Source: Burkholderiaceae bacterium
GTDB taxonomy: Bacteria > Pseudomonadota > Gammaproteobacteria > Burkholderiales > Burkholderiaceae_E
DNA length: 64,000 nt
Direction of reading: 5' to 3'
Assembly (NCBI GenBank): GCA_044371545.1
Contig: JBILTM010000001.1
Span: forward strand, 30,316-94,315
Positions 19,906 through 55,101 of this stretch are shown one piece after another. The translations under genes and the position numbers were made by a program. Under the pieces are notes generated by a model, which did no database searches, was not told the DNA's origin, and was given only the letters and a program-made list of their open reading frames with translations. Numbering within the stretch: the first letter of the stretch is position 1; each line of letters begins with the position of its first letter.

Positions 19906-19938
19906 GGGACGAACCCGCGATTCTAGCGGGTTCGTCCC
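19906..19938 (-). terminator. Perfect 13-bp stem / 7-nt loop hairpin spanning the lnt stop codon; intercistronic terminator or processing/stability element
   Basis: GGGACGAACCCGC-gattcta-GCGGGTTCGTCCC read directly. The lnt TAG lies in the loop. No U-tract. Sits 34 nt upstream of the glyQ ATG. Confidence 0.4.
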
Positions 19939-21485
19939 GCGCGTCCCGTGCGCGAGGCGAGCGCGCAGGCGGCGACGAGCGCCAGCGCGCCGATCCATGC
20001 GGTCGCATCGCCGGCGCGCGCGAACGGCGTGAGGCCGGTGCGGCCCTGCACGCGCACGTCGAGCGACGCCGCGACGTGATCGGGCAGCCGCGCGAGCACG
20101 CGGCCGTCGGCGTCGATCGCCGCGGTCACGCCGGTGTTCGTCGCGCGCAGCATCGGGCGGCCGGTCTCGAGCGTGCGCATCCGCGCGATCGCGAGGTGCT
20201 GCGGCAGCGCGTGCGAGCGGCCGAACCAGGCGATGTTGCTGACGTTGGCGAGCACCGTCGCGCCGCGCTCGCCGCCGAGCGAGGTGCGCAACTCGTCGCC
20301 GAAGAGGTCCTCGTAGCAGACGTTGAAGGCGACCCGCTGCCCGCCGACCTCGAACGGCGGCTGGCGCGCGTCGCCGCGCGCGAAGTCGCCGAGCGGGATC
20401 TCCATCATCCGGACGAACCAGCCGAAGCCCCAGGGCACGAACTCGCCGAAGGGCACGAGGTGGCGCTTGTCGTAGCGCGGCGCGGGCGCGCCGGCGGGGT
20501 CGGCGCGCAGCAGCAGCACGCTGTTGGCGAGCGCGGGATCGCCGCCGCCCGCGGGCACGACGAACGCCGGCAGCCCGATCGCGATCGCGTGGCCGCGCGC
20601 GACGTGCGCGAGGATCCGCTCGGCGATCGGCGCGGGCGTACGGTCCCAGGGCAGCGTCCATGCGGTCTCCGGCAGCACGGTCAGCGTCGCGCGGCCGGCC
20701 TCGAAGCGGTCGGCGTAGTCCTGCATCGCGGCGACGGTGCGCTCCGGGCGGAACTTCATGTCCTGCGCGACGTTGCCCTGCACGAGGCGCACGTCGAGCG
20801 GCGGGCCCTCGGGCCGCGTCCAGGCGTCGCGCGGGACCGCGAGCGGCGCGAGCACGATCGCCGCGGCGAGGGCCGCGGCGAGGCCGCGCGTGCGCACCGC
20901 GTCGCGCGTGCCACCGCCCGCCGCGACCGCCGCGAGCGCGGCGACCGCGACCGCCGCGGCGCCGACGCCGAAGACGCCGGCAAGCGGCGCGAGCCGGTCG
21001 AGCGGCCCGTCGAGCTGCGCGTAGCCGATCGCGAGCCACGGAAAGCCGGTGAACACCGTGCCGCGGGCGAGCTCGGCGAGCGTCGTCGCGCCCGCGAGCC
21101 CGAGCGCGTGAACGATCGGGCCGCGCCCCGAGCAGGCGCGCGCGGCGAGCCACGCGGCGGCGGCCGGGTAGAGCGACAGGTAGGCCGCGAACAGCACGAC
21201 CGCGGCGGCGGCCATCGGCGCCGGCATGCCGCCGTAGTGGTGCATGCTGACGTAGAGCCACGCGAGCCCTGCGCCGAACCAGCCGAGCCCGAAGGCGAAC
21301 GCGAGGCCGCCCTGCGCGAGCGGGGTCGCGCCGCGCGCGGCCCGCGCGCGCAGCAGCGCGAACAGCGCGGCGAGCACCGCGAGCGCCCAGGCCCAGTGCG
21401 ACAGCGGCGCGAACGCGCTCGCGTGCGCGAGGCCGAGACCGAAGGCGAGCGCGACCGGTCCGAGGCGGGCGCGCATCGGCGTCAC
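19923..21485 (-). CDS. lnt: Apolipoprotein N-acyltransferase
   Basis: 520 aa. Polytopic N-terminal membrane domain plus a CN-hydrolase domain ([18 protein letters not shown]). lnt-corC-ybeY-ybeZ synteny. Confidence 0.93.
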
Positions 21486-21509: not shown

Positions 21510-22388
21510 TCAGCCTTCATCGGCCCCATCGTCCCTGTCGTCACCCTCGGGCGCCCGGCGCTCGACGCGCAGCAGCCTGACCGCGCGCGGGTCCGCGCGC
21601 AGCACCTCGACGCGCAGCGGCCCGAGCTCGACGCGATCGCCGCGGCGCGGCATCCGGCCGAGCCGCTCGGCGAGCAGCCCGCCGACGGTCTCGCTCGCGG
21701 CGTCGTCGAGCGCGGTGCCGAAGTGCGCGTCGAACTGCACGAGCGGCGTCAGCGCGCGCACCCGCCAGCGCGGGCCTTCGGGCCCGGGCGCCTCGACGAT
21801 GTTGGCGGCCGACTCGTCGAGGTCGAACTCGTCCTCGATGTCGCCGACGATCTGCTCGAGCACGTCCTCGATCGTGATCAGGCCCGCGACGCCGCCGTAC
21901 TCGTCGACGACGATCGCGAGGTGGTGCCGGTTCTGGCGGAAGTCGCGCAGCAGCACGTTGAGTCGCTTGGTCTCGGGGATGAACACCGGCGGGCGCAGCA
22001 GCTCGCGCACCGAGCCGGCGCGGCCGGACCACAGCCGCAGCAGGTCCTTCGCGTGCAGGATGCCGATCACGTTGTCGCGCTCGCCGTCGACGACCGGGAA
22101 GCGCGAGTGCGCGGTGCGGATCGCGAACGCGGCGATCGCCTCGACCGGGTCGGACACGTCGACGACGTCCATCTGCGGGCGGGGCACCATGATGTCGCCG
22201 GCCGACTGCTCGGCGACCTGCAGCACGCCCTCGATCATCGACATCGCCTCGGCATCGAGGAGGTCGCGCTCCTGCGACTGCCGCAGCAGCTGCAGCAGCT
22301 GGTCTCGGTCGTCGGGCGTGCGCAGCAGCATCGCCGACATGCGCTCGAGCAGGGACGGTCTCGTCCGGCTCGGCGGGGCGTCGGACAT
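21510..22388 (-). CDS. corC: CBS-domain Mg/Co efflux-associated protein CorC/YbeX
   Basis: [22 protein letters not shown] pair, C-terminal CorC_HlyC-type domain. Confidence 0.9.
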
Positions 22389-22462: not shown

Positions 22463-22912
22463 TCAGCGGTAGGGGTCGGCGATGCGGAAGCGGCGCAGCA
22501 CCTCGACCTCGCGCGCCTCCATCTCGCGCGCTTCGCGCTCGTCCTCATGGTCCAGCCCCTGCGCGTGCAGCACGCCGTGCACGACCAGGTGCGCGAGATG
22601 GTCGCGCGGCGTCTTGCGCTGCGCGCGCGCCTCGCGACGCACGACCGGCAGGCACACGACGATGTCGGCCTGCACCGGCCCGTCGGTCGCGGGCGCCTCG
22701 TCGTACGCGAAGGTCAGCACGTTGGTCGCGTAGTCCTTGCCTCGGTAGTCGCGGTTGAGCGCGCGGCCCTCGGCCGCGCCGACGAAGCGCAGCGCGAGCG
22801 CGGCGTCGCGCGTGAGCGCGGCGCGGGCCCAGCGGCGCAGCTGCGCGCGGTCGGCGGGGCAGTCTCCGGCGCCGGGCTCGAACTGGATCGACAGCGCGAG
22901 GCGCGGGGGCAC
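22463..22912 (-). CDS. ybeY: Endoribonuclease YbeY (rRNA maturation factor)
   Basis: NRDYRGKDYATNVLTF and HLVVHGVLHAQGLDHE zinc motif. The ORF extends to the ATG at 23017 (which would overlap ybeZ by 38 nt). The GTG at 22912 gives a typical 149-aa YbeY. Start uncertain. Confidence 0.85.
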   Translation of the reverse strand: MPPRLALSIQFEPGAGDCPADRAQLRRWARAALTRDAALALRFVGAAEGRALNRDYRGKDYATNVLTFAYDEAPATDGPVQADIVVCLPVVRREARAQRKTPRDHLAHLVVHGVLHAQGLDHEDEREAREMEAREVEVLRRFRIADPYR

Positions 22913-22979
22913 GGGCGGGGTCGGCGGCGAAGCGCGCCGGCGGGCCGGATCCGGGGCCGGGCGCGACGTCCGCGCCGGC

Positions 22980-24032
22980 TCAGCCCGGGTCGCGCGGCGC
23001 GTGGCGCTCGTAGGCATCGACGATGCGGGCGACCAGCGGGTGACGGACGACGTCGCTGCTGTCGAACTCGGTGAACGCGATGCCGCGCACCTCGCGCAGG
23101 ACGCGGCGCGCCTCGATCAGCCCCGAGGGCTGGCCGCGCGGCAGGTCCATCTGCGTCATGTCGCCGGTGACCACCGCGCGCGAGCCGAATCCGATCCGCG
23201 TGAGGAACATCTTCATCTGCTCGGGCGTGGTGTTCTGCGCCTCGTCGAGGATGATGAAGGCACCGTTCAGCGTGCGCCCGCGCATGTAGGCGAGCGGCGC
23301 GATCTCGATCGCCTGCCGCTCGAACATCTTGGCGACGCGCTCGAAGCCCATCAGGTCGTACAGCGCGTCGTACAGCGGGCGCAGGTACGGGTCGACCTTC
23401 TGCGCGAGGTCGCCGGGCAGGAAGCCGAGCCGCTCGCCGGCCTCGACCGCGGGCCGGGTCAGCACGATCTTCTTGATCGCGTCGCGCTCGAGCGCGTCGA
23501 CCGCGCAGGCCACCGCGAGGTAGGTCTTGCCGGTGCCGGCCGGGCCGATGCCGAAGGTGATGTCGTGAGACAGGATGTTGCGCAGGTACTCGCGCTGGCG
23601 AGGCGTGCGGCCCTGCAGGTCTGCGCGGCGGGTGTGGAGCACCGGCGCGTCGTCGGCCGGCGCCGCCTCGGCCGCGGGGGCGGCGTCCCGCGGGCCCGCG
23701 TCGCGCGATGCGGGACGGCGCTCGCCGGGCGTGCGCAGCTCGACCAGGCCGAGCTGGATGTCCTCGATCGACAGCGGCGCGTCGGCGCGACGGTAGAAGT
23801 GCTCGAGCGCGCGGACCGCGTGCTTCGACTGCGAGCCGGGGCCCTCGACCGAGAAGGTGTCGGCGCGACGCGCGATGCGCACGTCGTAGGCCTCCTCGAT
23901 CTGGCGCAGGTTGTCGTCGACCGCGCCGCACAGGTTCGCGAGACGGCGGTTGTCGGCCTCGGCGGGCCGGTACTGGAGGACGCTGCTCTTCAAGTGGGGA
24001 CGGTCCCGGGTGTCCCGCGAGTGTACCGGCAA
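22980..24032 (-). CDS. ybeZ: PhoH-like ATPase YbeZ
   Basis: GIGPAGTGKTYLAVACAV Walker A, IILDEAQNTT, TGDMTQMDLP motifs. Confidence 0.93.
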   Translation of the reverse strand: MPVHSRDTRDRPHLKSSVLQYRPAEADNRRLANLCGAVDDNLRQIEEAYDVRIARRADTFSVEGPGSQSKHAVRALEHFYRRADAPLSIEDIQLGLVELRTPGERRPASRDAGPRDAAPAAEAAPADDAPVLHTRRADLQGRTPRQREYLRNILSHDITFGIGPAGTGKTYLAVACAVDALERDAIKKIVLTRPAVEAGERLGFLPGDLAQKVDPYLRPLYDALYDLMGFERVAKMFERQAIEIAPLAYMRGRTLNGAFIILDEAQNTTPEQMKMFLTRIGFGSRAVVTGDMTQMDLPRGQPSGLIEARRVLREVRGIAFTEFDSSDVVRHPLVARIVDAYERHAPRDPG

Positions 24033-24045
24033 CCGCTGCGCGCCC

Positions 24046-26235
24046 TCACGGATTGCGACGCAGGATCCCGACCCCGTTGACGGCGGGGCCGCCGCCGGGG
24101 CCGGAGATCGTGTAGCCCAGGCCCATGCGGGCCGCCTCCGGACCGAGGAAGGCGCCCGAGACCGCGGCCCGGCAGCCGCCCGAAGGCGCGCAGCCGAGCG
24201 CGCCGGGCGCGTCCGCCTGCACCGCCAGGTTGCCGCGGAAGGCGTTCGGGGCGGTCATCGTCAGGTTCGAGGCGGCCGGGTCGGCGAGGCCGCCGGTCGT
24301 CGCGAAGCGGTAGCGCGTGTCATCGGCGAAGCGGACCGCGGCCTCCAGGCCGATGCGCGTGTCGCGGCCCGCGCCGAAACGCACGACCGCGTCGGCGTTG
24401 AAGCTGCCGGGCGCCGACGAGCCGTCGGAGAAGGTCGGCGAGGTCGCGCCGGCGAGCGAATAGCGTGCGGAGCCCTCGGTCGGCATCGTCAGCGTCGGGA
24501 TGCCGACCAGATAGTGCATCCCGTCGCCCGAGCGCTGTACGTGCGCGCTCTCGCGTCCGAGCACCGCGAGCCGGGCCGTGCCGTCGATCCAGCGGCCCCA
24601 GACGGCGATGCCGTCGCCGCCGACGTCGGCGGTGCCCGCCTTGCCGCGCGACAGGCACAGCACCCCGGGGCACAACCCGACCGAAACGAGCTTCGCGCCG
24701 TCGAGCGCGACGCGCGCCGACGAGGTCGCGAGCACGGCGGTGTCGATCACCGGCGCCTGACGCAGGTGGACGTACAGCAGGCTCGCGTCGAGCGCGATCG
24801 GGCCGGTCTGGCTGGGGACGGGGAGGGAGGGGGAGGTGGGGAAGCCCGCCGAGGAGCCGGAGGAACCGGACGAAGCGGACGAACCGGACGAACCGGACGA
24901 ACCGGACGAAGCGGACGAACCGGACGCTACCGAAGAGCCCGAAGAGCCCGAGGCACCTGAATTTCCCGAAGACCCGCTCGTCCCCGAATTGCCGGTGCCC
25001 GTCGGGCCCGACGACGCCGTCGGCGCGGGGGAGTCCGTCCCGCTCGGACCCGCGCTGCCGCCGGTCCGGGCAGGGGCCGCGGTCCCCGCCGTGCTGCCCG
25101 CACCCGTGCCCGCGGCGCCGCCCGTCGCGACACCGCTGCTGTCCTGCGGACCCGCACTGCCCGCCAGCGCGAGCGTCGCGAGCGTCGGCGCCCCGTCCGC
25201 GTCGCGCTGCGCGCTCGGCGCGATCGCCGCCGCCGTCGGCCCCGTTCCCGTGCCCACGGGCAGCGCGGTCACGCCCGACGGCTCGTCGTCGACGCGGCCC
25301 GCGCCCGCCGAGCGCGCCGGCGCATCGCTGCCGTCGGTGCGCCCGTCGTCGTCCTTCGCGAGGGTCGGCGCCTCGGCGGGCGCGCGGCCGGCGCTCGTCG
25401 CCCGGCGCGTGCCGCCGGCGAGCGTGCCCGTGGCAGCCGGCGCGCCCGCCGTGGCGAGCGTCGCGGCCTGCGCCGACAGCACCGCGAAGCGCGCCCCCGC
25501 GCTCGCGCCGGCGTCCGCGTCGACGCGCCCCGCGCGTGCGATCGCATCGGCGACGGTGCCGCTGCTCCCGGGCATCGTCGACGACAGCACCGGCCGCTCC
25601 GTGGTCGGCGCCGCGGGCCGGTCGGCCGAGGGCGCATGCACCGTCCTGCCGGCGTCGACCTCGACCGTACCGCCGCGCGTGGTCACCGCGACCCGGCCCT
25701 GCGACACCATCACGCGTGTCCCGGCGCTGCGTCCCGGTCGGCATTGCGGATCGCACGCGGTCTCCTCGACGACGAACTCGGTGCCGCGCACCCCGACCGT
25801 CGCCGTCGGCGTGATCAGCTTGTAGTCCTCGTGCCGGCGCTTGCCGATCGCACCGGTCACCGTGCGCAGCGTGCCCCGCGTCAGCAGGTAGACCGCGCGC
25901 TGCGCGTCGCCCTCGAAGCGGTAGGCGTCGATCGTGAAGCGCGAGCCCGGCTGCAGCGATACGACCGAGCCGTCACTGAAGCGCATCTGGACGCGGCCGT
26001 CCGAACCGGTCTCGATGCGGTCGCCCGCCGAGACCGCGTCGCCGGTGATCGGGCGCCGCGTCGCGTCGCCGGCGGGTCCGGGCCGCACGACGACGACGTC
26101 GCCGGCGACGAGCCACAGCCGGGCGTCCTGGGCGAGCGCGGGTGCGGCGCACGCGAGCGCGACGGCAGCCGACGCCGCGCGCAGCGCCGTCGCCAGCCGC
26201 CGGAGCAGGCCGGCGCGGCAGCGTGTGCGGCGCAT
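24046..26235 (-). CDS. Secreted/surface protein with an N-terminal FecR domain, a ~300-aa disordered Ala/Gly/Ser/Thr linker and a C-terminal TbpB-like beta-barrel domain; candidate T11SS (Slam) cargo
   Basis: The ORF 24046..27042 was trimmed to the ATG at 26235 (MRRTRCRAGLLRRLATALRAASAAVALACAAPALAQD signal peptide). FecR-like GDRIETGSDGRVQMRFSDGSVVSLQPGSRFTID...VGVRGTEFVV. C-terminus WGRW...HYLVGIPT..MPTEGSARYSLAGAT...FNADAVVRFG...FRGNLAV...VSGAFLGPEAARMGLGYTI matches the TbpB/fHbp-type barrel pattern. The start lies 2 nt after the stop of the Slam-like gene. Confidence 0.7.
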   Translation of the reverse strand: MRRTRCRAGLLRRLATALRAASAAVALACAAPALAQDARLWLVAGDVVVVRPGPAGDATRRPITGDAVSAGDRIETGSDGRVQMRFSDGSVVSLQPGSRFTIDAYRFEGDAQRAVYLLTRGTLRTVTGAIGKRRHEDYKLITPTATVGVRGTEFVVEETACDPQCRPGRSAGTRVMVSQGRVAVTTRGGTVEVDAGRTVHAPSADRPAAPTTERPVLSSTMPGSSGTVADAIARAGRVDADAGASAGARFAVLSAQAATLATAGAPAATGTLAGGTRRATSAGRAPAEAPTLAKDDDGRTDGSDAPARSAGAGRVDDEPSGVTALPVGTGTGPTAAAIAPSAQRDADGAPTLATLALAGSAGPQDSSGVATGGAAGTGAGSTAGTAAPARTGGSAGPSGTDSPAPTASSGPTGTGNSGTSGSSGNSGASGSSGSSVASGSSASSGSSGSSGSSASSGSSGSSAGFPTSPSLPVPSQTGPIALDASLLYVHLRQAPVIDTAVLATSSARVALDGAKLVSVGLCPGVLCLSRGKAGTADVGGDGIAVWGRWIDGTARLAVLGRESAHVQRSGDGMHYLVGIPTLTMPTEGSARYSLAGATSPTFSDGSSAPGSFNADAVVRFGAGRDTRIGLEAAVRFADDTRYRFATTGGLADPAASNLTMTAPNAFRGNLAVQADAPGALGCAPSGGCRAAVSGAFLGPEAARMGLGYTISGPGGGPAVNGVGILRRNP
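24845..24960. repeat. In-frame 9-bp tandem repeat tract (core CGAACCGGA/CGAAGCGGA units) encoding (Ser-Ser-Gly)n in the cargo linker
   Basis: Read directly: ...ggaaccgga cgaagcgga cgaaccgga cgaaccgga cgaaccgga cgaagcgga cgaaccgga cgctaccga agagcccga agagcccga... The minus-strand translation is SGSSGNSGASGSSGSSVASGSSASSGSSGSSGSSASSGSSGSS. Confidence 0.85.
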
Positions 26236-26237
26236 GC

Positions 26238-27611
26238 TCAGAACCGGTAGCGGGCGTAGACGAAGGCCTGCGTGCGGCGGAAGTCGTTCGGCGCGAGCGT
26301 CGACGCGCTGTGCGTCCACGCGAGGCCCGGCATCAGCGTCAGCGATCGGCCGACGTCGTGCTCGAGGCCGATCCGCAGGTCGTGCTGATGGTCCAAGCGC
26401 ACGACGCCGAACAGCGGCTCGATCGCGTCGAACGTGCGTCGCTCGAACGACCAGCCCGCGTTCGCGCGCCAGCCCGGCGCCAGCGTCGCGCCGAGCGCGG
26501 TGCGCAGGCCGACGAAGCCGAACGACAGCTGCGGCAGGTCGGCGTGCACGGTCTCGTCGCCGCCGTGCAGCGCCGCGGCGAACGTCGGGGCGCGAGGGCC
26601 GCCCCAGCCGTGCGCGAGCGTCAGGCCCGCGGCGATGCGTCGCGCGTCGCGCACCGGCTGGTCGGGGAAGGTCAGGTCGAACGCCTGCGCGTAGGCGCCG
26701 AGCTGCGTGCGCGGCCCGCTGTCCCACTGCCACTGGGCGATCGCGCCGGCCGCGTCGCGGAACGCCGTGCCGTCGAGTCGCAGGTGCTGGTACTGCAGGC
26801 TCATGGAGTATCGATGCGCTCCGAACGCGGACGACAGGCCGGCGGACGCCTCCGCCGAACCGGTATCGATATTGTGCTGGCTCGCATTCGTGCGTTGGGC
26901 GATCTGAAGACCGGTAGTCCAGTCGAGCCAACCGTTGATCGGTGCGACGTACGTGATGCCCGCGGACAGCGCCGCGAACGCGCTCTCGCGCGGCCGGCTC
27001 GCGGGCAGCGGCACCAGCGCCTGCCCGTCCGACAGCACCCACTCGCCGAAGGAGCTGCCGAAGTTGACGTTGCTGTCCCAGCCCGCGCCGGCCTCGAGCA
27101 GCACGATCCAGCGCGGCGTGCGACCGTCGCCGAGCCGCGCGACGGTGTCGAGGTAGCGCTGCACCGTGTCGCGCACAGCGGGTGGCAGCTCGCCGCGCGC
27201 GACCGCCTCGAGCTCGCGGCGCGCGGCCTCGAGCTCGCGCAGCTGCAGGTGCGCGCGGCCGATCTCCGCACGTGCGGGCAGGTTCGACGGGTCGGCGGCG
27301 AGCACGCGCTCGAGCGCGAGCACCGCGATGCCGGGCCGGCCGGAGTCGAGCGCCGCGAGGCCGAGCAGGTAGTCGAAGTCGGGCGCGCCGGCGAAGCGCA
27401 CGGCCTGCGCGTCGAGCAGCCGGAACGCGTCGTCGGGCCGCTTCGCGTCGAGCGCGGCGCGCGCGTCGGCGAGCAGCCGCGACAGCACCGCGGCGTCGGA
27501 CGTCGCCGCCGGCGACTGCGCGCCGCCCGGCACGACCGCGCCGGGCGCGAGGACCGTCAGTGCGAGCGCCACGGCGAACGCACGCACGGCGAGCGCGGCC
27601 GCTCGCGGCAT
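26238..27611 (-). CDS. Outer-membrane TPR + beta-barrel protein, Slam/DUF560-like (type XI secretion system component)
   Basis: The ORF 26238..27677 was trimmed to the ATG at 27611 (signal peptide MPRAAALAVRAFAVALALTVLAPGAVVPGGAQS). TPR-like helices (DFDYLLGLAALDSGRPGIAVLALERVLAADPSNLPARAEIGRAHLQL), then GAGWDSNVN and alternating beta-strand sequence. The C-terminus ends in the OMP beta-signal ...FVYARYRF. 457 aa, similar in size and layout to Neisseria Slam. No HMM was run. Confidence 0.62.
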   Translation of the reverse strand: MPRAAALAVRAFAVALALTVLAPGAVVPGGAQSPAATSDAAVLSRLLADARAALDAKRPDDAFRLLDAQAVRFAGAPDFDYLLGLAALDSGRPGIAVLALERVLAADPSNLPARAEIGRAHLQLRELEAARRELEAVARGELPPAVRDTVQRYLDTVARLGDGRTPRWIVLLEAGAGWDSNVNFGSSFGEWVLSDGQALVPLPASRPRESAFAALSAGITYVAPINGWLDWTTGLQIAQRTNASQHNIDTGSAEASAGLSSAFGAHRYSMSLQYQHLRLDGTAFRDAAGAIAQWQWDSGPRTQLGAYAQAFDLTFPDQPVRDARRIAAGLTLAHGWGGPRAPTFAAALHGGDETVHADLPQLSFGFVGLRTALGATLAPGWRANAGWSFERRTFDAIEPLFGVVRLDHQHDLRIGLEHDVGRSLTLMPGLAWTHSASTLAPNDFRRTQAFVYARYRF

Positions 27612-27669
27612 CGAAAGCAGGGTCTCGACGTCCCGCGTCGCCGGGGTTCCGCGCGCGCTGGCGCGGGGC

Positions 27670-29010
27670 TCAGTCACGGATCGGGAGTTCGCCGCGCAAC
27701 GAGTGCGGCAGCGCCGAGGTGATGGCGAGATCGACCAGGTGCCCGACCAGGCGCGGCGCGCCGGCGAAGTTGACGACCCGGTTGTTCTCGGTGCGCCCCG
27801 AGAGCTCGTTCGGGTCCTTGCGCGACGGGCCCTCGACCAGCACGCGCTGTGTCGTGCCGACCATCGCCTCGGAGATCCGCCGCGCGTGCCCGTCGGTCGC
27901 GGCCTGCAGCCGCTGCAGCCGCGCGAGCTTGGTCGCCTGCGGCGTGTCGTCGGCGAGGTCCGCCGCCGGCGTGCCGGGGCGCGGGCTGTAGACGAACGAG
28001 AACGAGCCGTCGAAGCCGACGTCCTCGATCAGCGCCATCGTGCGCTGGAAGTCCTGCTCGGTCTCGCCGGGGAAGCCGACGATGAAGTCCGAGGTGATCG
28101 AGACGTCCGGCCGCGCGGCGCGAAGCCTGCGGATGATCGACTTGTACTCGAGCACGGTGTAGCCGCGCTTCATCGCCGCGAGCACGCGGTCCGAACCCGA
28201 CTGCACCGGCAGGTGCACGTGCGCGGCGAGCTTCGCGATCGTGCCGTGCGCGTCGACGAGCCGCTGAGAGAACTCGCGCGGATGCGACGTGGTGTAGCGG
28301 ATGCGCTCGATGCCGGGCATCTCGGCGACGTAGTCGAGCAGCATCGCGAAGTCGGCGCGCTCCTCGCCCGCGCCGGTCGCGCCGAGGTAGGCGTTGACGT
28401 TCTGCCCGAGCAGCGTCACCTCGCGCACGCCCTGCTCGGCGAGCCCCGCGACCTCGGTCAGCACGTCCTCGAACGGGCGCGAGACTTCCTCGCCGCGCGT
28501 GTAGGGCACCACGCAGAAGCTGCAGTACTTGCTGCACCCCTCCATGATCGACACGAACGCGCTCGCGCCCTCGACGCGGGCCGGCGGCAGGTGGTCGAAC
28601 TTCTCGATCTCGGGGAAGCTGATGTCGACCTGCGGCCGGCCGGTGCGCCTGCGCGCTGCGATCAGCTGAGGCAGTCGGTGCAGCGTCTGCGGCCCGAACA
28701 CCACGTCGACGTACGGTGCGCGGCTGACGATGTTCGCGCCCTCCTGGCTCGCGACGCAGCCGCCCACGCCGATCACCATGTCCGGGCGCTCGCGCTTGAG
28801 CGCGCGCAGCCGGCCGAGGTCGGAGAACACCTTCTCCTGCGCCTTCTCGCGCACCGAGCAGGTGTTGAACAGCACGATGTCGGCCTGGGCGGGATCGTCG
28901 GTCGCCTCGACGCCGTCGGCCTGTGCCTGGCCGAGCACGTCGGCCATCTTGGCCGAGTCGTACTCGTTCATCTGGCAGCCGAACGTGCGGATGTAGAGCT
29001 TCACGGGCAT
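27670..29010 (-). CDS. miaB: tRNA-2-methylthio-N6-dimethylallyladenosine synthase MiaB
   Basis: The ORF 27670..29082 was trimmed to the ATG at 29010 ([19 protein letters not shown]...). Radical-SAM CSKYCSFC motif and TRAM domain. Confidence 0.96.
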
Positions 29011-29024
29011 GGGGCGGCTCCGGC

Positions 29025-29405
29025 TCAGCGCTGCTGGGCGGCGCGTCGCGCGGCCGCGATCCGGGCCGAGATCGTGCGCCACTCCTCGTCGGTCACCAGC
29101 CAGACCTGGACGACCTCGCCGAGGCTGCCGCGCTGGTAGGCGACGCGCCGCTCGCCCTCGACGGTCGACGGCGGCCGGATGATGTTCGACTCGTCGCGGA
29201 TCCGCGTGCCCGGGCCGAGCAGCACCGGCTTGCCGTCGATCGTCGCCTCGGGGAACACGCCGATGCGCAGCCGACCGAGCTCGACGCCTTCGGGGATCGC
29301 GCGCTGCAGCGGCATCTGCTGCGCGAGCGCCGGCGCGCCCGCGACCGCGGCGAGGGCCAGGGCGGCGCAGACGAGGCGCGGACGGAGGCGGGCGGGCAGG
29401 TGCAT
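29025..29405 (-). CDS. Hypothetical secreted protein (signal peptide, 126 aa)
   Basis: [30 protein letters not shown] signal peptide. Lies 14 nt upstream of miaB on the same strand. I do not recognise a family. Confidence 0.45.
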
Positions 29406-29476
29406 GGTGCGGCGGATGATACCGCGCTGGCCTGCGGCCCCCGCGCCGGACGGCGGACCGCGGGTCGCGCCGGTCG

Positions 29477-29507
29477 GCCGAGGCGCCGCGCCCCGGGCCG
29501 CCTCGGC
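29477..29507 (-). terminator. GC hairpin (9-bp stem GCCGAGGCG/CGCCTCGGC) immediately downstream of the leuA stop; possible terminator, no U-tract
   Basis: Inverted repeat read directly, ending 1-2 nt from the leuA stop codon (29509..29511). Confidence 0.3.
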
Positions 29508-29508
29508 G

Positions 29509-31194
29509 TCAGGCCGCGCGCCGCGCCTGCGTGGCCCCGGCCGGCACGAGGCCGAGCCGGTTCGCCGCGCAGATCACCGCGCGCAGCGATGCGACGACGA
29601 TGCTGCGGTCGATGCCGACGCCGAAGCGCGTGCCGACCACGCCGTCGCCCGCCGCCTCGATGAACGCGACCGCGCGCGCGTCCGAGCCCGCATCGATCGA
29701 GCGCTCCTCGTAGGCGTCGATCCGCAGCGGCAGCCCGAGCGCACGCACCGCGGCGTCGATCGGACCGTTGCCTTCGCCGCGCAGCGTGCGCCGCTCGCCG
29801 TCGACCGACACGTCGAGCTCGACCTCGTGGCCGCGGTCGCTGCCGCTCATCCGATGCGCGATCAGCCGGATCCGCGCGTCGTCGCGCAGGTAGGCGTCCG
29901 AGAACAGCGTCCACAGGTCGTCGGCGGTCACCTCGGTGCCGTGCGCGTCGGTGTGCCGCTGCACGATCGCGCTGAACTCGACCTGCAACCGGCGCGGCAT
30001 CACCATCCCGTGGTGGCGCTCGAGCAGGAACGCGATGCCGCCCTTGCCCGACTGGCTGTTGACCCGGATCACCGACTCGTAGCTGCGGCCGACGTCGGCC
30101 GGGTCGATCGGCAGGTAGGGCACCTCCCACGGCGCGTCCGGGCGCTGTGCGGCGAAGCCCTTCTTGATCGCGTCCTGGTGCGAGCCCGAGAACGCGGTGA
30201 ACACCAGGTCGCCGACGTACGGGTGGCGCGGATGGATCGGCAGCTGGTTGCACTGCTCGACGGTACGGGCCACCGCGTTGATGTCGGAGAAGTCGAGCTC
30301 CGGGTCCACGCCCTGCGAATAGAGGTTCAGCGCGAGCGTGACGAGGTCCACGTTGCCGGTGCGCTCGCCGTTGCCGAAGAGGCAGCCCTCGATGCGCTGC
30401 GCCCCCGCCATCACCGACAGCTCGGCCGCGGCCACCGCGGTGCCCCGGTCGTTGTGCGGGTGGACCGAGATCACCGCCGCCTCGCGGTTCGGCAGGTTGC
30501 GATGCATCCACTCGATCTGGTCGGCGTAGACGTTCGGCGTCGCGCACTCGACGGTCGCCGGCAGGTTCAGGATCACCGGCCGCTCGGGCGTCGCGCCCCA
30601 GGCGTGCATCACCGCCGCGCAGACGTCGCGCGCGAACGGCAGCTCGGTCGAGGAGAACACCTCCGGGCTGTACTCGAAGCCCCACACGGTACCGGGCCGC
30701 GCGTCGAGCTGCGCGCGCACGAATCGCGTCATCCGCACCGCGAGGTCGAGCACCTCGTCCTGGCTCAGGCCGAACACCACGCGGCGGAACACCGGGGCGG
30801 TCGCGTTGTAGAGGTGCACGGTCGCGCGCTTCGCGCCGGCGAGCGAGTCGATCGAGCGCGCGATCAGGTCCTCGCGCGCCTGCGTGAGCACGCTGATCGT
30901 CACGTCGTCGGGCACGAGACCCGTCTCGATCACGTGCCGCACGAAATCGAAGTCGGTCTGCGACGCGGCCGGGAAGCCGACCTCGATCTCCTTCACGCCG
31001 ATCTTCACCAGCGTCTCGAACATCCGCAGCTTGCGCGTCGTGTCCATCGGCTCGAACAGCGCCTGGTTGCCGTCGCGCAGGTCGGTGGACAGCCAGCGCG
31101 GCGCGCGGTCGATGGTGCGCGACGGCCAGCGGCGATCGGGCAGGTCGATGGTCGGGAACGGTCGGTACTTTCCGGCGGCGGGCTTCGTGATCAT
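29509..31194 (-). CDS. leuA: 2-isopropylmalate synthase (long LeuA type)
   Basis: 561 aa. [29 protein letters not shown]-terminal regulatory domain. Confidence 0.95.
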
Positions 31195-52563: not shown

Positions 52564-52815
52564 GGTACGCTCTCCGAGGTTCGTTCCCCGTCACGCTAGC
52601 AAGAACTGCGCTAGTGATGAATCGTGGATATGCACAAGGGCGGTGCGCGGTGCCGTGCCGCTGCCGAACGGCCCGTCTCCTGGAACGGTCGAGGCGGCGG
52701 CGCGACGGCGCCGGACGGGGCGCCTCGACAGCGTGGCCTTGCGCGGTCAGACTCCGCGCGGCGCCGGGGTGGGGGCGGGCCGCCACGCTCCGGCCGGGCG
52801 TCGGCGCCCGCCGAG

Positions 52816-55101
52816 ATGCCTGCCGTGCCGTTCGCCCACCCGTTCCCGCACCGACCCGCACCGACCCGCACCGTGCCCCCGATCGATCCCGCCACGCCGG
52901 CCCCGGCCGCCGGCCCCAGCCGCTCCCCCGCAGACCGCCGGGCAGCGGTCGGCTTCGCCGCGGTGATCCTCGCGAGCGCGTTCCTGCTGTTCCAGGTCCA
53001 GCCGATGGCCGGCAAGGCGATCCTGCCGTGGTTCGGCGGCACGCCGGCGGTGTGGACCACGGCGATGCTGTTCTTCCAGTGCGTGCTGTTCGGCGGCTAC
53101 GTCTACGCGCACCTGCTCGCGCGCCACGCCGCGCCGCGCACCCAGGTCGCGGTCCACGTCGCGCTGCTCGCGCTCGCCGCGTGGCTCGCCGCCGGCGTGC
53201 TGCCCGACGCGGCGCTCAAGCCCGCCGGCGACGACGCGCCGGTCGCGACGATCCTGTGGATCCTCGCGGCGAGCGTCGGCCTGCCGTACTTCTGCCTCGC
53301 CACCACCGGCCCGCTGCTGCAGCACTGGTTCGCGCAGGCGGGCCTGGGCGGCGCGGTGTTCCGGCTCTACGCGCTGTCGAACCTCGGTTCCTTCGCCGCG
53401 CTGCTGTCGTTCCCCTACCTGTTCGAGCCGCGGTTCGAGCTGCCGACGATCGCGCGACTCTGGACCGCGGGCTTCTGGGCGTTCGCCGCGGGCTGCGCGA
53501 CCGTCGCGATCACGGTGGTGGCGGCGCGTGCGCGCACCCCGGCCGCGACATCGCCCGGCGCGAGCATCGCCGCGCCGGGCGGGGTCGAGGGTCCGCCGAC
53601 CTGGCGCACGCGCGCCGTGTGGCTCGCGCTGCCGGCGCTCGCGTCGCTCGCATTCGTCGCGACCACCGACCACGTCAGCCACGACATCGCGCCCGAGCCG
53701 CGGCTGTGGATCACGACGCTCGCGCTGTACCTGCTCACCTTCATCCTGGCCTTCGACCATCCGCGCTGGTACCGGCCGGCGCTGACCGCGGCGGCGTGCG
53801 TCGCCGGGGTGCTCGCGCTCGCCGGGCGCGAGGCGATCGTCGAGGCGCTCGGGCTGTCGTGGAGCCTCGGCGTCGACGGCCTGCGCACGCTGCACTACGC
53901 GGCGATGTTCGCCGCCTGCCTGCTGTGCCACGGCGAGCTGTACCGGCGCCGGCCGCGCGACGTGCGGCACCTGACCGGGTTCTACCTGTGGATGTCGGCG
54001 GGCGGCGCCTGCGGCGGGCTGTTCGTCGCGCTGGTCGCGACGAACCTCTTCGACGACTACCACGAGTGGCCGCTGCTGCTGGTCGCGATGCTCGCGCTCG
54101 CGTTCGCGGTGCTCGCGCGCGAAGCGGGCGGCACCGGCACGCGCCGTCGCCCGGTGCGCGCGGTGGCCGCGCTCGCCGCGCTCGCACTCGGCCTCGCGGT
54201 GCTGCGCTGGGAGGATCCGTTCGGCTGGCGCGACCCGTCGACGCCCGAGCGCATCGAGGTCCGGCTCGACCAGACGCGCAACTTCTACGGCACGGTGTCG
54301 GTCGCCGAGCGCCGCCATCCGGGCGACCCGTCGCGCGACCACCGCGTGTTCTTCAGCGGCCAGATCACGCACGGCATCCAGTACCTCGACCCGGCGCTCA
54401 AGCGCGCGCCCGTCACCTACTACTCAGAGGACAGCGGCATCGGCGAGACGCTGCGCTGGGTGGCGGCCCGCCAGCCGGCCGCGCGCGTCGCGCTGGTCGG
54501 GCTGGGCGCCGGCACGCTCGCGACCTACGCGCGCGAGGCCGACACCTACGACTTCTACGAGATCAACCCCGAGGCGGTGCGCGTCGCCAACGCGTTCTTC
54601 GACAACCTCGCCACCTGCCGGGCGCGCACCACGTCGACCTTCGTCGGCGACGCGCGGCTGAGCTTCGAGCGGCTGCCCGCCGACGTCCGCTACGACGTGA
54701 TCGTGCTCGACGCGTTCACCGGCGGCTCGGTGCCGACGCACCTGCTGACGCGCGAGGCCTTCGAGACCTGGCACCGTCACCTCGCGCCCGGCGGCTTCAT
54801 CGCGATCAACATCACCAACGGCTACCTGAACCTGTATCCGGTGGTGCGCGCGCAGGCCGAGGCGCTCGGCCTCGGTTTCCGCAACAAGTGGCTCGCGGCC
54901 GACCGCGCGCGCCTCGTGCGGCAGAACCAGCACTTCGTGATGACGCGCGACGAGTCGTACCTGCGCGCGCATCCCTCGGTGAACCGGCCGATCCGCGACG
55001 CCTCGGGCGCGATCGTGGGCCGCGAGCAGCTCGACGTGCCCGGGCTGCGGACCTGGACCGACCACTACGGCAGCATCGGCGCGATCGAGTGGCGCGACTG
55101 A
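52816..55101 (+). CDS. Fused polytopic membrane domain / spermidine-synthase-like methyltransferase-fold protein
   Basis: The ORF 52624..55101 was trimmed to the ATG at 52816. N-terminal multi-TM region (FLLFQVQPMAGKAILPWFGGTPAVWTTAMLFFQ...). C-terminal [12 protein letters not shown]...YDVIVLDAF...LAPGGFIAINI SpeE-like fold. Start uncertain. Confidence 0.72.
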   Translation: MPAVPFAHPFPHRPAPTRTVPPIDPATPAPAAGPSRSPADRRAAVGFAAVILASAFLLFQVQPMAGKAILPWFGGTPAVWTTAMLFFQCVLFGGYVYAHLLARHAAPRTQVAVHVALLALAAWLAAGVLPDAALKPAGDDAPVATILWILAASVGLPYFCLATTGPLLQHWFAQAGLGGAVFRLYALSNLGSFAALLSFPYLFEPRFELPTIARLWTAGFWAFAAGCATVAITVVAARARTPAATSPGASIAAPGGVEGPPTWRTRAVWLALPALASLAFVATTDHVSHDIAPEPRLWITTLALYLLTFILAFDHPRWYRPALTAAACVAGVLALAGREAIVEALGLSWSLGVDGLRTLHYAAMFAACLLCHGELYRRRPRDVRHLTGFYLWMSAGGACGGLFVALVATNLFDDYHEWPLLLVAMLALAFAVLAREAGGTGTRRRPVRAVAALAALALGLAVLRWEDPFGWRDPSTPERIEVRLDQTRNFYGTVSVAERRHPGDPSRDHRVFFSGQITHGIQYLDPALKRAPVTYYSEDSGIGETLRWVAARQPAARVALVGLGAGTLATYAREADTYDFYEINPEAVRVANAFFDNLATCRARTTSTFVGDARLSFERLPADVRYDVIVLDAFTGGSVPTHLLTREAFETWHRHLAPGGFIAINITNGYLNLYPVVRAQAEALGLGFRNKWLAADRARLVRQNQHFVMTRDESYLRAHPSVNRPIRDASGAIVGREQLDVPGLRTWTDHYGSIGAIEWRD

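Follow-up and report, generated by a model that had tools for sequence, protein, structure and literature searches.

Gene organization at the miaB-ybeZ junction

The 64,000-nucleotide stretch of contig JBILTM010000001.1 from a Burkholderiaceae bacterium that was analysed here (in the following, the window) holds, between the housekeeping genes miaB and ybeZ, two adjacent minus-strand genes for an outer-membrane protein (OMP) and a 729-aa protein termed the cargo, which together are probably a self-contained module of the type XI secretion system (T11SS), the system of the Slam translocators. The minus-strand order reads leuA, a gene for a 126-aa secreted protein, miaB, OMP, cargo, ybeZ, ybeY, corC, lnt and glyS (Table 1). 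As miaB-ybeZ-ybeY-ybeX-lnt are contiguous in Escherichia coli K-12, the two extra genes interrupt a classical housekeeping run. Spacing is tight throughout. The OMP gene, from ATG at 27611 to TGA at 26238-26240, is separated from miaB by a spacer of 58 nt with 79% GC, the cargo gene, from ATG at 26235 to TGA at 24046-24048, follows after a gap of 2 nt (TGA-GC-ATG), and ybeZ starts with TTG at 24032 after a further 13 nt. The open reading frames (ORFs), their order and their spacing had been proposed in a first-pass annotation made by a model from the sequence, and are borne out by the ORF coordinates and the family matches.

The window has a GC content of approximately 74%, which does not shift across the locus except for a GC peak at the G/A/S/P-rich linker of the cargo. 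Among the ORFs with high GC at third codon positions (GC3) that were covered by the neighbour-gene scan of the 64-kb window, neither mobility genes nor a TonB-dependent receptor were found, so that the corresponding statements of the first-pass annotation hold among the ORFs scanned, and its remark on the lack of a compositional shift holds apart from the linker. Equally, a Fur-box scan of the region gave nothing Fur-box-like, the best candidates having 7-8 mismatches of 19. Consensus scans for promoters and terminators over 11.5 kb gave 0 sites, but are uninformative at a GC content of 74%.

Conservation and genomic contexts of the gene pair

A scan with one genome per species identified relatives of the OMP in 358 genomes, the best 80 of which were analysed for synteny; loci are labelled L001-L085, and counts are given among informative loci. 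The order miaB-OMP-cargo-ybeZ is kept in approximately 60 species-level Burkholderiaceae genomes. Among the loci analysed, a FecR/TbpB-barrel gene lies directly downstream of the OMP gene in 72 of 74, miaB upstream of it in 60 of 72 and ybeZ after the cargo gene in 35 of 48. The miaB-embedded form occurs in Lautropia, Zeimonas, Quisquiliibacterium, Limnobacter and numerous metagenome-assembled genomes (MAGs) of Burkholderiaceae, together a group from soil and water, with Zeimonas arvi, Quisquiliibacterium transsilvanicum and Lautropia dentalis as cultured carriers. The arrangement is old and vertically inherited and has not arisen by chance. A recent horizontal insertion, considered as a candidate explanation, is ruled out by the synteny across the clade and the uniform composition. 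The comparison of the miaB-ybeZ content across relatives, suggested in the first-pass annotation, has thus shown the pair to be retained, and the term 'inserted' used there is correct in that the pair interrupts the miaB-ybeZ run, but not in the sense of a recent event, as the pair is ancient at this place. The same annotation had also raised the case of a universal presence at the locus together with an already assigned function; the two genes are present clade-wide at the locus, but without an assigned function.

Within the miaB clade, median identity is 75% for MiaB and 76% for YbeZ versus 47% for the OMP, 52% for the N-terminal domain and 42% for the C-terminal domain of the cargo. Judged from these identities, the fast evolution of OMP and cargo is typical of exposed proteins.

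More distant pairs with 35-38% identity occur in Gallionella, Sideroxydans, Sideroxyarcus and other betaproteobacterial MAGs in other contexts. A gene for a TPR-containing glycosyltransferase of family 41 (GT41) follows the cargo gene in 11 of the 15 loci L066-L080, with the pair lying between thrC and the GT41 gene in 9 of those 11, and also in L084 and L085. The neighbours of one pair include a type I restriction-modification system together with chemotaxis genes; another pair is located near a PEP-CTERM gene. Since the pair recurs in at least three different genomic contexts, the conserved unit is OMP plus cargo.

The GT41 gene encodes approximately 720 aa with TPR and Glyco_transf_41 domains (L085:8749-10911; L084:4439-6601), is usually followed by a Mem_trans gene and is still present in the distant loci L075, L079 and L080 (38-43% identity). 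This neighbour recalls adhesin glycosylation of the HMW1C type. N-glycosylation of the cargo by GT41 was discarded, as NxS/T sequons are not enriched over shuffled sequences in either clade. Individual loci depart from the common plan: L046 (7933-9801) carries the pair, but miaB is absent from the 7.9 kb upstream of it; in L061 (8001-15668) miaB-OMP is kept and the FecR match lies 5.8 kb further, past an opposite-strand ORF of 1,082 aa; and in L038, no match to the cargo lies within 2.4 kb.

The outer-membrane protein

Characterization of the OMP was performed with a set of 34 aligned full-length orthologs with 41-85% identity and E-values down to 1e-100. Direct matches of the OMP of the window are confined to TPR families (TPR_19, E 1e-6; TPR_16, E 3e-6), while PF04575 (DUF560/SlipAM) is matched by 23 of the 34 orthologs, with a best E-value of 3.1e-9, and PF24575 (TPR_Slam) by 11. 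The OMP has hundreds of full-length relatives, several of which have been named 'DUF560 domain-containing protein' by NCBI, and the neighbouring OMPs in L081-L085 carry PF04575.

The AlphaFold2 (AF2) model of the OMP, with a mean confidence (pLDDT) of 90.6, begins with a signal helix, followed by TPR helices (aa 39-162) and a barrel of exactly 14 strands (aa 167-456) with pLDDT values above 90; the C-terminus ends in YARYRF. This predicted fold, which had been anticipated in the first-pass annotation, agrees with the published definition of Slam as an N-terminal TPR domain followed by a predicted 14-strand DUF560 barrel (PMC5449769). Searching PDB sequences with the OMP profile retrieved only TPR proteins. 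In Foldseek, the model has the TPR-porins BcsC, PelBC and PgaA on top (E 1e-14 to 1e-8) with TM-scores of 0.35-0.43 and also matches the 14-strand barrels OmpG, FadL and CymA, whereby the PDB copy searched holds no Slam structure and the fold is comparable only to other barrels. Assignment of the OMP to the DUF560/Slam family is supported, only indirectly, via its orthologs and the predicted structure.

The cargo protein

The cargo combines a signal peptide, an N-terminal FecR-like domain, a low-complexity linker and a C-terminal domain of 250 aa. The C-terminal domain is predicted by AF2 (pLDDT 90.7, pTM 0.88) as a beta handle followed by an 8-strand barrel, as the first-pass annotation had expected. 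The 30 best Foldseek matches in the PDB are TbpB, hemophilin/HphA, fHbp and the C-domain of NHBA, with a best E-value of 8.4e-7 for TbpB. TbpB, hemophilin and fHbp have been established as cargo of Slam/T11SS. As a word-index query, the C-domain alone retrieved just 8 relatives, and an alignment harvested from the syntenic loci (A2) was needed to extend the family. Of 41 orthologs from this alignment scanned with Pfam, 15 match PF01298 (TbpB_B_D), the best with an E-value of 6.5e-6. Equally, the A2 profile searched against PDB sequences has TbpB of Neisseria meningitidis on top (E 8.9e-5), and 13 of its 14 matches are TbpB, LbpB or hemophilin. Residues W67, G68 and R69 of the domain are invariant in the ortholog alignment, and the tail GAFLGPEAARMGLGY...GVGILRR corresponds to the 'GGFYGPxAxExGG...' motif of TbpB in the profile alignment. 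The identity of the cargo C-terminus as a TbpB-type domain is again supported, only indirectly, by way of orthologs and the predicted fold.

An exhaustive profile search with the C-domain yielded 2,102 clusters at 50% identity, 538 of them at E<=1e-30, and an N-terminal FecR domain is present in 42 of 57 sampled C-domain proteins. Many cargo relatives possess 2-6 tandem handle-barrel units with a length of up to 2,462 aa (L075:9441-13349; L079:1586-3778). These multi-unit relatives of 1,000-2,462 aa resemble a giant, multi-lobed version of the bilobed plan of TbpB.

At the N-terminus, a signal peptide of the Sec type (MRRTR...AAPALA|QD) was recognized by eye. The cargo has no canonical lipobox and most orthologs are without a cysteine at that site, features by which the cargo is assigned to the soluble (unlipidated) class of T11SS cargo. 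The FecR domain (PF04773, E 3.5e-14) follows directly after the signal peptide and confirms the FecR part that the first-pass annotation had attributed to the 729-aa protein. In a set of 28 N-domain orthologs scanned with NCBIfam, the LipL45 and Lsa33 models match all 28 and are the best matches (E 1e-13 and 1e-11), while the true FecR model PRK09774 is matched by 1 of the 28 only. The retention_LapA model NF033682 is matched by 25 of the 28, with a best E-value of 3.5e-9 at model positions 8-68 of 145, all below its curated cut-off of 50 bits; the N-domain of the window scores 30.8 bits. The LapA-like stretch comprises the first approximately 60 residues of the domain. No PDB match was obtained when the N-domain was searched as a single sequence. 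The profile search retrieved as best match 5ix9 (E 0.003), the MpIBP retention module that has been used to model the retention module of LapA, and no entry of the FecR/PupR type. RTX or type I secretion system (T1SS) domains have no Pfam match in the cargo or among the neighbouring ORFs scanned, nor were LapG or LapD found among these ORFs.

The linker measures 162-799 aa in the miaB clade and 26-97 aa in single-domain relatives. Its in-frame 9-bp repeat, the several-fold length differences and the 95%-related locus L001, which already diverges at the linker repeat, point to length variation driven by slippage. Among the Lautropia cargos (L045:10129-12858; L056:11438-14665), which start 0.5-2.4 kb after the OMP gene, a Ser/Thr/Pro-rich insertion lies close to where the FecR domain begins; the linker of L045 is Pro-rich (35% P). 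In L025, an in-frame stop codon was met in the N-domain alignment.

Feature coordinates and neighbouring genes

Table 1. Features of the miaB-ybeZ region, with positions in the window
Feature	Position	Strand	Evidence or remark
leuA	29509-31194	-	upstream of the 126-aa ORF
126-aa hypothetical protein, signal peptide	29025..29405	-	first gene of the same-strand run; no Pfam/NCBIfam match
miaB, tRNA methylthiotransferase	27670..29010	-	TIGR01574 E 9.3e-173; UPF0004, Radical_SAM and TRAM
miaB-OMP spacer, 58 nt	27612..27669	-	without consensus promoter, terminator or Fur box
OMP, 457 aa, putative T11SS/Slam type	26238..27611	-	signal peptide, TPR, predicted 14-strand barrel, C-terminal YARYRF
OMP periplasmic TPR domain, aa 39-162	27126..27497	-	TPR_19 E 1e-6; AF2 helices
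OMP 14-strand barrel, aa 167-457, putative divergent DUF560/SlipAM	26241..27113	-	AF2; PF04575 in orthologs
Cargo, 729 aa	24046..26235	-	starts 2 nt after the OMP stop
Cargo signal peptide, Sec type, aa 1-35 (...APALA|QD)	26131..26235	-	read by eye
Cargo N-terminal FecR-superfamily beta domain, aa 36-225	25561..26130	-	PF04773 E 3.5e-14
Cargo A/G/S/T/P low-complexity linker, ~254 aa	24799..25560	-	composition
9-bp tandem repeat, in frame, 7.8 copies, Ser-Ser-Gly, within the linker	24857..24926	-	
Cargo handle ('pedestal') beta-sheet subdomain, WGRW motif	24502..24798	-	AF2 strands 2-99
Cargo 8-strand TbpB-type barrel, presumed T11SS targeting domain	24052..24471	-	AF2; Foldseek; PF01298 in orthologs
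ybeZ, PhoH-like ATPase	22980..24032	-	PF02562 E 1.4e-96
ybeY	22463-23017	-	Pfam YbeY
corC	21510-22388	-	Pfam CBS and CorC_HlyC
lnt	19923-21485	-	Pfam LNT_N and CN_hydrolase

The gene for the 126-aa protein is located 14 nt upstream of miaB and has tblastn matches in 52 loci with 33-91% identity (median 40%). As this position is conserved in the 52 related loci, the ORF may belong to the same transcription unit as miaB. The spacer of 103 nt between leuA and this ORF (29406-29508) contains the sole AT-containing motif of the region, GGTATCAT, which may be a candidate -10 element of a promoter serving the whole gene run. Elsewhere in the window, an ORF of 826 aa (52621-55101, plus strand) with a GC3 of 0.95, as in coding sequence, adjoins glycogen phosphorylase and has no Pfam family at E<=1e-5.

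Interpretation and alternative explanations

The favoured explanation, to which a probability of roughly 0.78 is given, is that the pair is a self-contained T11SS module with its cognate non-lipidated cargo, probably read through together with the housekeeping genes and fulfilling a constitutive role unrelated to iron. From gene order, conservation, domain homologies and predicted folds we infer export, its dependence on the OMP, co-transcription and a binding role. Both proteins would be exported by Sec, and the OMP would be inserted by the barrel assembly machinery (BAM) as the translocator, with its TPR domain and barrel recognizing the TbpB-lobe-like handle and 8-strand barrel at the C-terminus of the cargo. 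The cargo chain would then cross the outer membrane unfolded, as for Slam1 and TbpB; Slam1 is an autonomous translocon that translocated only unfolded TbpB (PMC9090332). The outcome would be a LipL45/Lsa33-like binding domain, displayed on the surface or released, on a long, flexible linker of variable length. An effector-pedestal-barrel plan and unlipidated soluble cargo have already been documented for T11SS (PMC12282271). An extracytoplasmic fate is suggested by the signal peptides on both proteins, the C-terminal YRF of the OMP and short-range cysteine pairs in the cargo, while the adjacency in 72 of 74 loci, the recurrence in at least three contexts and the 2-nt gap argue for a functional linkage. 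An ancestor of the Burkholderiaceae clade would have acquired the module at the miaB-ybeZ junction, where it would have been inherited since. The tight spacing, too short for a terminator or promoter ahead of ybeZ, suggests that transcription reads through and hence that the pair is co-transcribed and constitutively expressed; together with the lack of Fur and TonB signals, this makes a constitutive, non-iron role in the envelope or in adhesion more probable than metal piracy.

Several observations weigh against this explanation. The first-pass annotation had expected both proteins to match their family models; for DUF560 and TbpB_B_D this is the case for the above-mentioned orthologs, but not for the proteins of the window themselves, as the OMP does not match PF04575, even with the barrel half alone at E<=10, and the C-domain of the cargo has no direct Pfam match and stays below every threshold of PF01298. 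The OMP barrel could be matched only to generic 14-strand barrels and TPR-porins in a PDB copy without Slam, and the Foldseek TM-scores of the cargo domain are moderate (0.46-0.53 of the query). All characterized T11SS belong to cluster 1 of a sequence similarity network (SSN), the other nine clusters being environmental and uncharacterized (PMC8406197). The OMP lineage described here is itself uncharacterized, and OMPs of cluster 3 pair with non-TbpB cargo, so that the behaviour of OMPs outside cluster 1 is not guaranteed. Finally, an internal promoter within the 58-nt spacer is possible.

Both proteins of the window miss the DUF560 and TbpB_B_D thresholds although many orthologs at 41-50% identity pass them, and the extreme GC content with its amino-acid bias is suspected as the cause. 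This indicates an annotation blind spot, as T11SS surveys that rely on PF04575 can miss such pairs, here in a host genome with 74% GC.

The alternatives closest to the favoured explanation retain the T11SS pair and differ in what follows from it. A real T11SS pair might have its own promoter and regulation and occupy a neutral, hitch-hiking position, whereby the housekeeping context would be uninformative on expression and function. With the pair in unrelated contexts (thrC/GT41, type I restriction-modification and chemotaxis, PEP-CTERM), with L046 carrying it away from miaB, and with a 58-nt spacer, widened to approximately 330-440 nt between tblastn match boundaries in some relatives, that could hold a promoter, this possibility deserves attention but is considered rather doubtful: order and short gaps are kept across a clade with MiaB at 65-80% identity, and neither a terminator nor a promoter would fit before ybeZ into gaps as short as 2 nt and 13 nt, so that transcription of ybeZ-ybeY-corC-lnt must cross the pair or start inside it. 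Less probable again, yet worth retaining, is a threaded tether, in which only the TbpB-like C-domain and part of the linker cross the membrane, whereas the N-domain folds in the periplasm as a stopper, providing lipid-free display via the cargo's own translocator as for LapA in LapE. The order of an N-terminal plug, a Gly-rich linker and a C-terminal export signal parallels LapA (bioRxiv 10.1101/198937), and both the matches of 25 of 28 N-domains to retention_LapA (best E 3.5e-9) and the best PDB profile match, the MpIBP retention module 5ix9, fit this arrangement; however, the former all remain under 50 bits, the approximately 60 residues involved belong to the generic FecR fold as well, and the better-matching LipL45 and Lsa33 have been described as surface proteins. 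The restriction of Slam1 to unfolded TbpB (PMC9090332), the lack of a lipobox, the higher conservation of the N-domain than of the C-domain (52% versus 42%), as expected for a shielded domain, and the shortest linker of 26 aa, which could still span the membrane, are also in line with a tether, whereas the known unlipidated T11SS cargos hemophilin and HrpC are released whole and LapG/LapD-like genes are not adjacent among the ORFs scanned. If true, the tether would anchor a surface protein independently of lipid by means of its cognate type XI translocator, in convergence with LapA-LapE, and would define a sizeable, constitutive, non-iron class of T11SS (>2,000 clusters at 50% identity) in environmental Betaproteobacteria.

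Two further alternatives abandon the T11SS assignment and are both very improbable. The OMP could be the porin of a synthase-dependent exopolysaccharide system of the PgaA/BcsC/PelB type with a functionally unrelated FecR protein next to it, as BcsC, PelBC and PgaA lead the Foldseek matches of the whole OMP (E 1e-14 to 1e-8) and a GT41 glycosyltransferase gene follows the pair in Gallionellaceae. BcsC, PelB and PgaA are larger barrels with 16 strands. The OMP model, in contrast, has 14 strands and TM-scores of 0.35-0.43 to these porins, its TPR domain is short (~120 aa), no polysaccharide synthase or deacetylase genes lie nearby among the ORFs scanned, and a TbpB-fold protein is encoded next downstream in 72 of 74 loci, observations that outweigh a previous inclusion of PgaA homologs in PF04575 (PMC8406197). 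Marginally less credible even than this, the 729-aa protein could be a true anti-sigma regulator of the FecR/PupR type with the OMP as its sensor partner. The Pfam FecR domain (E 3.5e-14) would agree with such a role, but a cleavable signal peptide replaces the cytoplasmic anti-sigma domain and the transmembrane helix, PRK09774 is matched by only a single one of the 28 orthologs, the PDB profile search with the N-domain is free of FecR/PupR-type entries, and neither an extracytoplasmic function (ECF) sigma factor nor a TonB-dependent transducer is found among the window ORFs scanned or the neighbours in L081-L085.

Comparison with known systems

T11SS tested so far belong to one animal-associated cluster with metal- or host-binding lipoproteins or hemophores as cargo, while no cargo is known for the remaining clusters, which come mostly from bacteria of soil and water; the locus described here gives one of these lineages a concrete cargo candidate. 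That the pair keeps its place within miaB-ybeZ-ybeY-corC-lnt in one clade and next to thrC in a second one is an argument for a steady rather than iron-regulated expression, which, if true, would broaden the view on the purpose of T11SS. Cargo relatives number in the thousands, some with up to six tandem barrel units, and the cultured carriers make the predictions testable.

With Slam1 and Slam2 of Neisseria (cargo TbpB, LbpB, fHbp and HpuA; SSN cluster 1), the pair has in common the TPR domain with a predicted 14-strand DUF560 barrel, the handle and 8-strand barrel of the cargo with a GxFxGPxAxxxG...GVxxxxK/R tail, and the adjacency of translocator and cargo genes. In contrast, the cargo described here is not a lipoprotein and carries a FecR-superfamily effector on a disordered linker of 160-800 aa, neither a TonB-dependent receptor nor a Fur box nor a host association is apparent, PF04575 does not recognize an OMP this divergent on its own, and the pair resides in a housekeeping operon. 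A soluble, Sec-dependent cargo with no lipobox and a single handle-barrel unit is shared with HrpB/HrpC of Xenorhabdus, HsmA/hemophilin and HphA. However, HrpC, hemophilin and HphA bind heme by loops of handle and barrel and are linked to TonB-dependent receptors, whereas the cargo of the window has a distinct FecR-like domain and a long linker ahead of its handle, and its gene has no heme or iron genes in the vicinity.

The predicted T11SS cargo architecture with a 'disordered N-terminus' and the predicted multi-TbpBBD surface proteins of Sphingomonas and Psychrobacter (Grossman et al. 2025; PMC12282271) share the effector-pedestal-barrel plan and long disordered spacers of the Pro/Thr type, and the 2-6 tandem handle-barrel units in relatives of the window cargo are equally reminiscent of the latter. 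That survey covers OMP clusters 1 and 3 only and lists approximately 10 architectures, none with a FecR domain (PMC12282271). In the two main T11SS surveys (PMC12282271 and PMC8406197), neither 'FecR' nor 'miaB' is mentioned (0 occurrences of either word). The first-pass annotation had regarded context and cargo architecture as unlike those of described Slam systems. In another text on surface lipoprotein assembly, FecR is mentioned as a gene-neighbourhood filter only.

Beyond T11SS, LapA and MpIBP with the TolC-like LapE show the same order of a folded N-domain, a Gly-rich linker and a C-terminal export determinant, to which the sub-threshold retention-module match can be added, but LapA is secreted by T1SS from the cytoplasm whereas Sec followed by T11SS would operate here, with no RTX Pfam match and no LapG/LapD among the ORFs scanned. 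The PF04773 beta domain is common to the cargo, the FecR/PupR anti-sigma factors and LipL45 and Lsa33 of Leptospira. Unlike FecR/PupR, the cargo is without an anti-sigma domain, a transmembrane helix, an STN-like C-terminal subdomain and an ECF sigma factor or transducer partner, and, unlike LipL45, it is no lipoprotein. Seen against these systems, the pair is a recognizable T11SS with a new cargo architecture in a new genomic context and possibly with a new mode of anchoring.

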